Positions 42,561-42,596 of a DNA stretch of 43,781 nt are shown piece after piece. Source of the DNA: Perkinsus olseni (Eukaryota); assembly GCA_013115125.1 (NCBI GenBank), contig JABANN010000043.1, positions 62,001-105,781 on the forward strand, written 5' to 3'. The number at the start of each line of letters is the position of its first letter. Position 1 is the stretch's first letter. Position numbers and translations under genes: made by a program. Below the pieces are notes generated by a model that was given only the letters and a program-made list of their open reading frames with translations, was not told where the DNA came from and did no database searches.

Positions 42561-42596
42561 CTGGGGAGTCCCCAGTGCCACTGGGCCAGTGGGGAC
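42561..42596. repeat. Two nested 22-nt scars (8-mers CTGGGGAC and CCCAGTGG)
   Basis: CTGGGGA GTC [CCCAGTG CCACTGGG CCAGTGG] GGAC. Confidence 0.88.

Follow-up and report, generated by a model that had tools for sequence, protein, structure and literature searches.

The sequence at positions 42561–42596 of the window, as we call the whole 43,781-base stretch of Perkinsus olseni DNA analysed here (C2713:62001–105781), reads as one excision scar lying inside another. The question it raises is whether two successive events took place at this site and, if so, whether the second was drawn to the scar left by the first. Excision footprints are usually too varied to be recognised without the ancestral allele; the scars of Perkinsus can be read from one genome and are exactly reversible.

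Structure of the compound scar

A perfect scar is defined as X[1–7] followed by the reverse complement of X and then by X[2–8], where X is the 8-bp target, so that this 7-8-7 form adds 14 bp. The features of the site and its immediate surroundings are as follows.

42561–42596, no strand: compound scar, +28 bp over the ancestral 8-mer CTGGGGAC
42561–42577, no strand: left part of the outer (older) scar, outer positions 1–17, from the sequence and from collapse
42571–42592, no strand: inner (younger) scar, target CCCAGTGG, at offset 10 in the outer 22-mer, a perfect match
42586–42596, no strand: right part of the outer scar, outer positions 12–22, from the sequence and from collapse
42607–42617, plus strand: native 11-mer with second copies of the outer target (42610–42617) and of the inner inverted 8-mer (42607–42614)
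42778–42799, no strand: nearest other scar with at most one substitution, common to the copy of the repeat in contig C3108

The letters of 42561–42596 are CTGGGGA GTC (CCCAGTG CCACTGGG CCAGTGG) GGAC, in which the parentheses enclose the inner scar. This 22-mer is a perfect X[1–7], reverse complement, X[2–8] arrangement with X = CCCAGTGG, and its forward seven, inverted eight and second forward seven bases occupy 42571–42577, 42578–42585 and 42586–42592, respectively. Collapse of the inner scar to its target regenerates an outer scar, CTGGGGA GTCCCCAG TGGGGAC, which is again perfect with X = CTGGGGAC; its left part comprises letters 1–7 of that target (42561–42567), the inverted target (42568–42575) and two bases of the third copy. 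Both layers are of the k = 8 type. The nested perfect scar of the original prediction is thus confirmed letter by letter as well as by collapse, and when all 14 perfect scars of the window were collapsed exactly one second-round scar appeared, at this site. The claim that the inner 8-mer lies across a junction created by the first event also holds, and this fixes the order of the two. Since a junction centre falls within all 15 of the 15 positions that are fully nested, the spanning of a junction is uninformative on targeting.

The DNA around the site is repeat-like and occurs a second time, in C3108. This only second copy of the repeat carries an 89-bp deletion across the nested site, and no second copy of the nested site was found elsewhere in the assembly, where its flank pattern occurs in the window only. 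The scar at 42778–42799 is common to the C3108 copy and therefore predates the split of the two copies. The repetition of target letters in the 11-mer at 42607–42617 is probably incidental; the target recurs within 40 bp at 8 of 232 scars, against a control rate of 1.7%. Interpretation of the host repeat as a gypsy-like LTR element was dropped, there being no Pfam match in 15 + 4 window ORFs, and no longer homologue of its 253-aa ORF was found. Its copy in C3108 contains an insertion of about 150 bp (L003:1888–2036), beginning with TG and ending with CA between 5-bp direct repeats and absent from the window copy, that by eye looks like a solo LTR. Another repeat occurs twice in the window, at 36553–37314 and 40059–40823, with 77% identity over 800 columns.

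Uniformity of the scars across the genome

The sample for the genome-wide survey consisted of the window and 80 further stretches, together 728,087 bases or 1.8% of the genome (assembly of 39.9 Mb in 3,353 contigs); it is non-random, being made up of long and mid-size contigs with 8 stretches picked for hAT matches. A transposase encoded in this genome matches a protein named from Perkinsus olseni at 100% identity across 73% of its length. Scars were scored by majority. The window holds 14 perfect scars versus none in each of 20 order-3 Markov sequences. In the full sample there are 129 perfect scars and 120 with one substitution, versus 0 and 0.3, respectively, in three block shuffles, and 247 of the two classes combined after removal of overlaps. 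Extrapolated roughly to the whole genome, the counts correspond to about 7,000 perfect scars and 13,500 near-perfect ones.

The geometry is close to invariant. Within 528,087 bases, 103 scars have k = 8 with one base lost per side (103 of the 106 matches at k = 8), any other geometry at k = 7–11 accounts for at most 4, and no scar was found at k = 9, 10 or 11. When X[1–7] and X[2–8] are held fixed and the insert between them is varied, the full inverted target is found 129 times versus 0 in the Markov control, a two-base insert of the Ac type 44 times versus 37, and short footprint classes are at or near background. Preference for particular targets is weak (G-T-n-n-n-n-A-C, with top frequencies of 0.35–0.37). 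A repeatable mechanism rather than chance had been proposed to underlie this grammar, and its uniformity throughout the genome, with 129 perfect scars where shuffled sequence has none, bears that out.

Rare variant footprints are present at 34271–34291 of the window, L016:2527 and L022:4320; they are one base short or contain inverted inserts that are doubled and longer (11 and 16 bases), and are likely minor repair outcomes. The 12.7 kb from 10570 to 23290 of the window contain no scar at up to two substitutions and are flanked on both sides by dense scars; this part holds an intron-rich RNA-helicase-like gene, recognised from motifs by eye, and a 447-aa ORF (18605–19948). Five tRNA genes (Val, Met, two Trp and Asp) are located in the window at 522–597, 18018–18091, 29418–29489, 30929–31001 and 34017–34090.

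Alleles and the order of the two events

The scars are true insertions: C3108 has two of them where the window has the bare 8-mer, and an allele pair of the same kind is provided by the strain comparison, which at this region drew on four (X1, X2, X7 and X8) of the eight runs that contain it.

39713–39734, no strand: perfect scar, empty-versus-scar allele pair, with 14 bases absent in X7 and X8

The window may derive from X1 and X2, which agree with it and in both of which a second copy carries a scar at 43256; X7 and X8 are diverged strain runs. Record 27 of X8 is 743 bases long at a depth of 77.1 and spans 42134–42895 (762 bases), from which it differs by 25 substitutions in 743 bases and by 19 gaps, all of them deletions. 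With only 19 bases deleted, X8 cannot be without both scars, which amount to 28 bases. Depth in the bin 42450–42599 is 69.9, which equals 77.1 × 136/150 and corresponds to 14 missing bases, whereas 13 would give 70.4 and 15 would give 69.4; elsewhere the same arithmetic recovers a listed 2-base gap (77.4). If another contig adds depth, the loss is 14–19 bases with a best fit of 14. X8 therefore most likely carries the outer scar and lacks the inner one, a state read from depth rather than from letters. X7 has no contig over 42497–42599, and this absence was left out of the evidence.

The outer scar thus appears older than the 3% split between the haplotypes and the inner scar younger. Two successive events with the outer first are supported by the order of collapse, by the allele pairs and by the intermediate deduced for X8. 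As for the +14 allele that the original prediction sought in other isolates, the X8 allele fits it in length (14–19 bases missing), as judged from depth and not from letters.

Frequency of nesting

In order to count nested cases, every scar with at most one substitution was collapsed, and at most one substitution was required of both layers. Four cases were obtained among about 250 scars in 728,087 bases, namely window 42571, L016:3113, L017:590 and L068:4517, with offsets of 5, 7, 8 and 10 among them. L016:3108–3143 is a perfect scar within a perfect scar at offset 5, the inner target at L017:583–618 is the inverted middle copy (offset 7), and L068:4509–4560 is a triple scar site. The candidates L022:146, L022:6965 and L062:1979 were left out because their outer layers need two substitutions; decoy sets yielded 0.75 nested matches of that kind per set and none at 0–1 substitutions. 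Counting these three weaker candidates would bring the total to 7, to be set against a larger expectation.

Whether nesting exceeds random placement depends on the null, and with so small a count the power is low. Four cases compare with 0.65 expected under uniform placement (P = 0.004) and 1.36 under placement uniform within each stretch (P = 0.049), and the expectation from pairs 3–6 kb apart is 0.96. Neighbours 15–300 bp apart, on the other hand, predict 2.9–3.1 (P = 0.32–0.39) and those 22–200 bp apart 3.1 (P = 0.39), and removal of the discovery window leaves 3 cases versus 2.9 expected (0.56 if uniform). The anticipated excess accordingly holds against uniform placement and disappears against the density of neighbours. 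The density of scar pairs closer than 300 bp is about 3 times that at 3–6 kb, coding DNA included. Scars therefore cluster, and nesting is the short end of this clustering without an extra peak. Since nesting equals neighbour density, no particular affinity for scars has to be assumed for the second hit. Neighbours are also no closer in age: 45 of 148 pairs within 200 bp share an age class, versus 49.7 ± 5.2 after permutation, where age class is the substitution class and a coarse clock. These two results go against the proposal that footprints are re-targeted by local hopping.

The clustering could come from tolerant patches of non-coding DNA, from accessible DNA or from short hops; tolerance is suggested because +14 shifts the reading frame and the 12.7-kb gene-bearing part of the window is free of scars. 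An element should be unable to land in its own repaired footprint within the same jump.

A candidate hAT element

The genome contains 11 matches to PF05699, the hAT dimerisation domain. The C521 family has an intact transposase frame of 791 aa, with PF05699 and PF14291 (DUF4371) above cut-off, and ends of the element are found at four contig ends; no resident copy has its two ends on one contig, and the flanks served to pair them. One pair of ends, on C2937 and C289, shares a terminal repeat of 16 bp, together with a duplicated 8-mer, ACTGTAGC. The other pair, consisting of the end of C1438 (L097:1470–1500) and the start of C3003 (L123:95–140), belongs to a copy that is without its first 4 and last 2 bases and is located between the two halves of one 8-mer's scar, with X[1–7] and the reverse complement of X on the left and a suffix of the reverse complement followed by X[2–8] on the right. 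A matching arrangement of half-scars was found at 0 of 200,000 random point pairs. A further one-substitution scar overlaps the right half and makes this a compound site. Either this copy was captured again at the site of its own excision, or it had inserted into the centre of a scar and was then damaged. In this one case, with ends paired by their flanks, the half-scars link the scar geometry to the C521 family.

No empty copy of the C1438 site turned up, nor did a filled allele of any scarred site, where empty and scarred states were seen. Neither the terminal-repeat pattern nor a DNA search with the left end returned non-autonomous partners of the C521 element, and most of the 14 matches to CAGAGATCGGC, considered as element ends, are not ends. 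Only about two copies of the family were found, versus thousands of scars, and in the 764,623 bases scanned a single intact element combines terminal repeats with an exact 8-bp duplication, with one weak candidate besides. Resident copies are undercounted, since in this fragmented assembly young copies of identical sequence collapse, as those of C521 do. The agent that makes the scars is most likely a low-copy hAT element, for which C521 is the candidate. A second hAT family, C293 (L050:336–4429), is represented by an element of 4,094 bp with 11-bp terminal repeats and an 8-bp duplication, which itself carries scars.

Discussion

We consider it probable that the site received two ordered visits from a cut-and-paste transposon that forms hairpins on its flanks, likely a hAT element, and that the second visit required no attraction to the scar. 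hAT transposases are known to nick the flank one base out and to seal it as a hairpin on excision. Insertion first duplicates the 8-bp target, as is seen with two hAT elements in this genome. On excision the transposase would nick one base into each flank and seal the flanks as hairpins, giving X[1–7] plus the reverse complement of X on the left and the reverse complement plus X[2–8] on the right; this geometry is seen on both sides of one resident copy. The host would then open the hairpins to 3' overhangs complementary over the duplicated target, and their annealing and ligation would always add 14 bp. It follows from the geometry that the same 22-mer should result whatever the opening points, provided that the overhangs overlap. 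The first visit would have hit CTGGGGAC and a later one an 8-mer inside the finished scar; the genome as a whole holds on the order of 10^4 such scars, which are concentrated in repeats and non-coding sequence and a few percent of which overlap. Absence of classical end joining as the cause of their uniformity was considered and is unsupported, as a Ku-family gene is present (two exon matches above cut-off, C3024:69115–69644).

The same chemistry could act with preferential re-targeting of footprints, through hops of tens to hundreds of bp or an attraction to palindromes. The threefold pair density below 300 bp (3.1 nested cases expected from it, versus 0.96 from pairs at 3–6 kb) and the excess of nesting over both uniform nulls are in keeping with this, as are the triple site in L068, the compound site at which one resident copy of the two sits, a slight hint that sites are used again, and the firm offsets, of which offset 7 re-uses the same 8-mer inverted. 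We nevertheless regard re-targeting as rather unlikely, given that nesting does not exceed the density of neighbours at 15–300 bp, with or without the window, that concordance in age is absent, that the outer scar appears to precede and the inner to follow the haplotype split, and that the five nearest neighbours of the compound scar, out to 849 bp, include no other perfect scar. Local hopping of hAT elements is, moreover, described at the kb to Mb scale in the accessible part of PMC2753552. A stronger form, in which a few resident hAT copies, attracted by their own palindromic scars, walked through the genome by very short hops and left some 10^4 uniform and reversible footprints, seems to us unlikely.

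Two visits by another agent, a Mutator-like element or a member of some other family, are distinctly improbable. There are 18 matches to PF10551, with open frames of up to 935 aa, and the Mutator-like Muta1 forms flank hairpins with duplications of 8 or 9 bp according to the available text of PMC5499845. The same text, however, gives more than 90% precise excision of Muta1 in yeast, our 528,087 bases hold no scar at k = 9 or 10, and the copy found between two half-scars is a hAT element. (The PF10551 matches lie on C204, C226, C433, C45, C539 and other contigs, five of them with open frames of 619–935 aa.) Scars might also be left by integrations that abort or last only very briefly, or by a nuclease working without a resident element, as the contrast of about 250 scars with one intact element and one weak candidate, and the want of a filled allele at any scarred site, might suggest. 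We think this very unlikely: by its geometry the 7-8-7 form needs both filled-in copies of the duplication before the hairpins arise, and the count of resident copies is depressed by the collapse of identical ones. Origin of the 36-mer in one step, by templating of its inner part from the 11-mer at 42607–42617 or by slippage is the least credible account. The inner inverted 8-mer does recur at 42607 and the outer target at 42610; a templated copy, however, accounts for 8 of the 14 inserted bases, where the 7-8-7 rule accounts for all 14 and for the one-base skips, slippage is unable to invert, no template of this kind is stated for the three other nested cases, whose offsets differ, and the intermediate allele deduced for X8 favours two steps.

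Taking the site as the product of two ordered visits, we see the nested case mainly as a positive control, showing that finished scars are ordinary targets, and as a sign that the process ran repeatedly across the 3% haplotype split. The candidate element, including the copy caught between two half-scars, is the more useful addition. Because the scars are exactly reversible, events can be ordered from nested cases with no outgroup, and scars can serve as polarised, low-homoplasy markers between strains. If the walk in short hops were true, nesting and overlap would preserve the path of single transposon lineages as a trail whose order can be decoded, a natural recorder of events, and would read out one dominant route of hairpin repair in a Ku-bearing cell.

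Comparison with known systems

Among the features of hAT footprints, the scars of Perkinsus have an 8-bp duplication, palindromes offset by one base, a resident element and, in one case, a link to it through half-scars. For the hAT element Ascot-1 in Ascobolus immersus and for Hermes, the flank hairpins reportedly have a one-base offset and repair is strongly biased in its products; that work is said to concern a single locus or reactions in vitro, whereas Perkinsus holds a genome-wide, fixed record with nesting. A literature search, which covered few subscription papers, returned no report of such scars in Perkinsus and none of nested footprints, and the accessible portions of PMC7780238 and PMC4423477 contain nothing on the 7-8-7 form.

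Flank hairpins are stated for hAT, MULE, Transib and RAG in the parts of PMC5499845 available to us. Muta1, a MULE, resembles the Perkinsus agent in its flank hairpins and in duplications of 8–10 bp and differs from it in that, as far as that text goes, its excision in yeast is mostly precise and its duplication length variable, whereas the scars here have k = 8. Tol2 and Ac hop locally, with an excess of reinsertion near the donor that extends to the Mb scale, and within 900 bp of new Tol2 sites no footprints were observed (PMC2753552). Reinsertion near the donor could likewise add to the clustering in Perkinsus; nesting needs none.

The closest likeness is to Ac/Ds, whose footprints in plants, Saccharomyces cerevisiae and Candida albicans are, in the available part of PMC5873905, ascribed to hairpin opening at an 8-bp target duplication, with palindromic additions and joining aided by microhomology, as proposed here. 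According to the same part, the palindromes are centred on the complement of the base adjoining the element, and 128 Candida clones yielded 28 footprint types with a longest P-addition of 3 bases (PMC5873905). In contrast to these varied products, Perkinsus has one dominant product containing the whole inverted target, and its scars are fixed throughout the genome and dense enough to nest.
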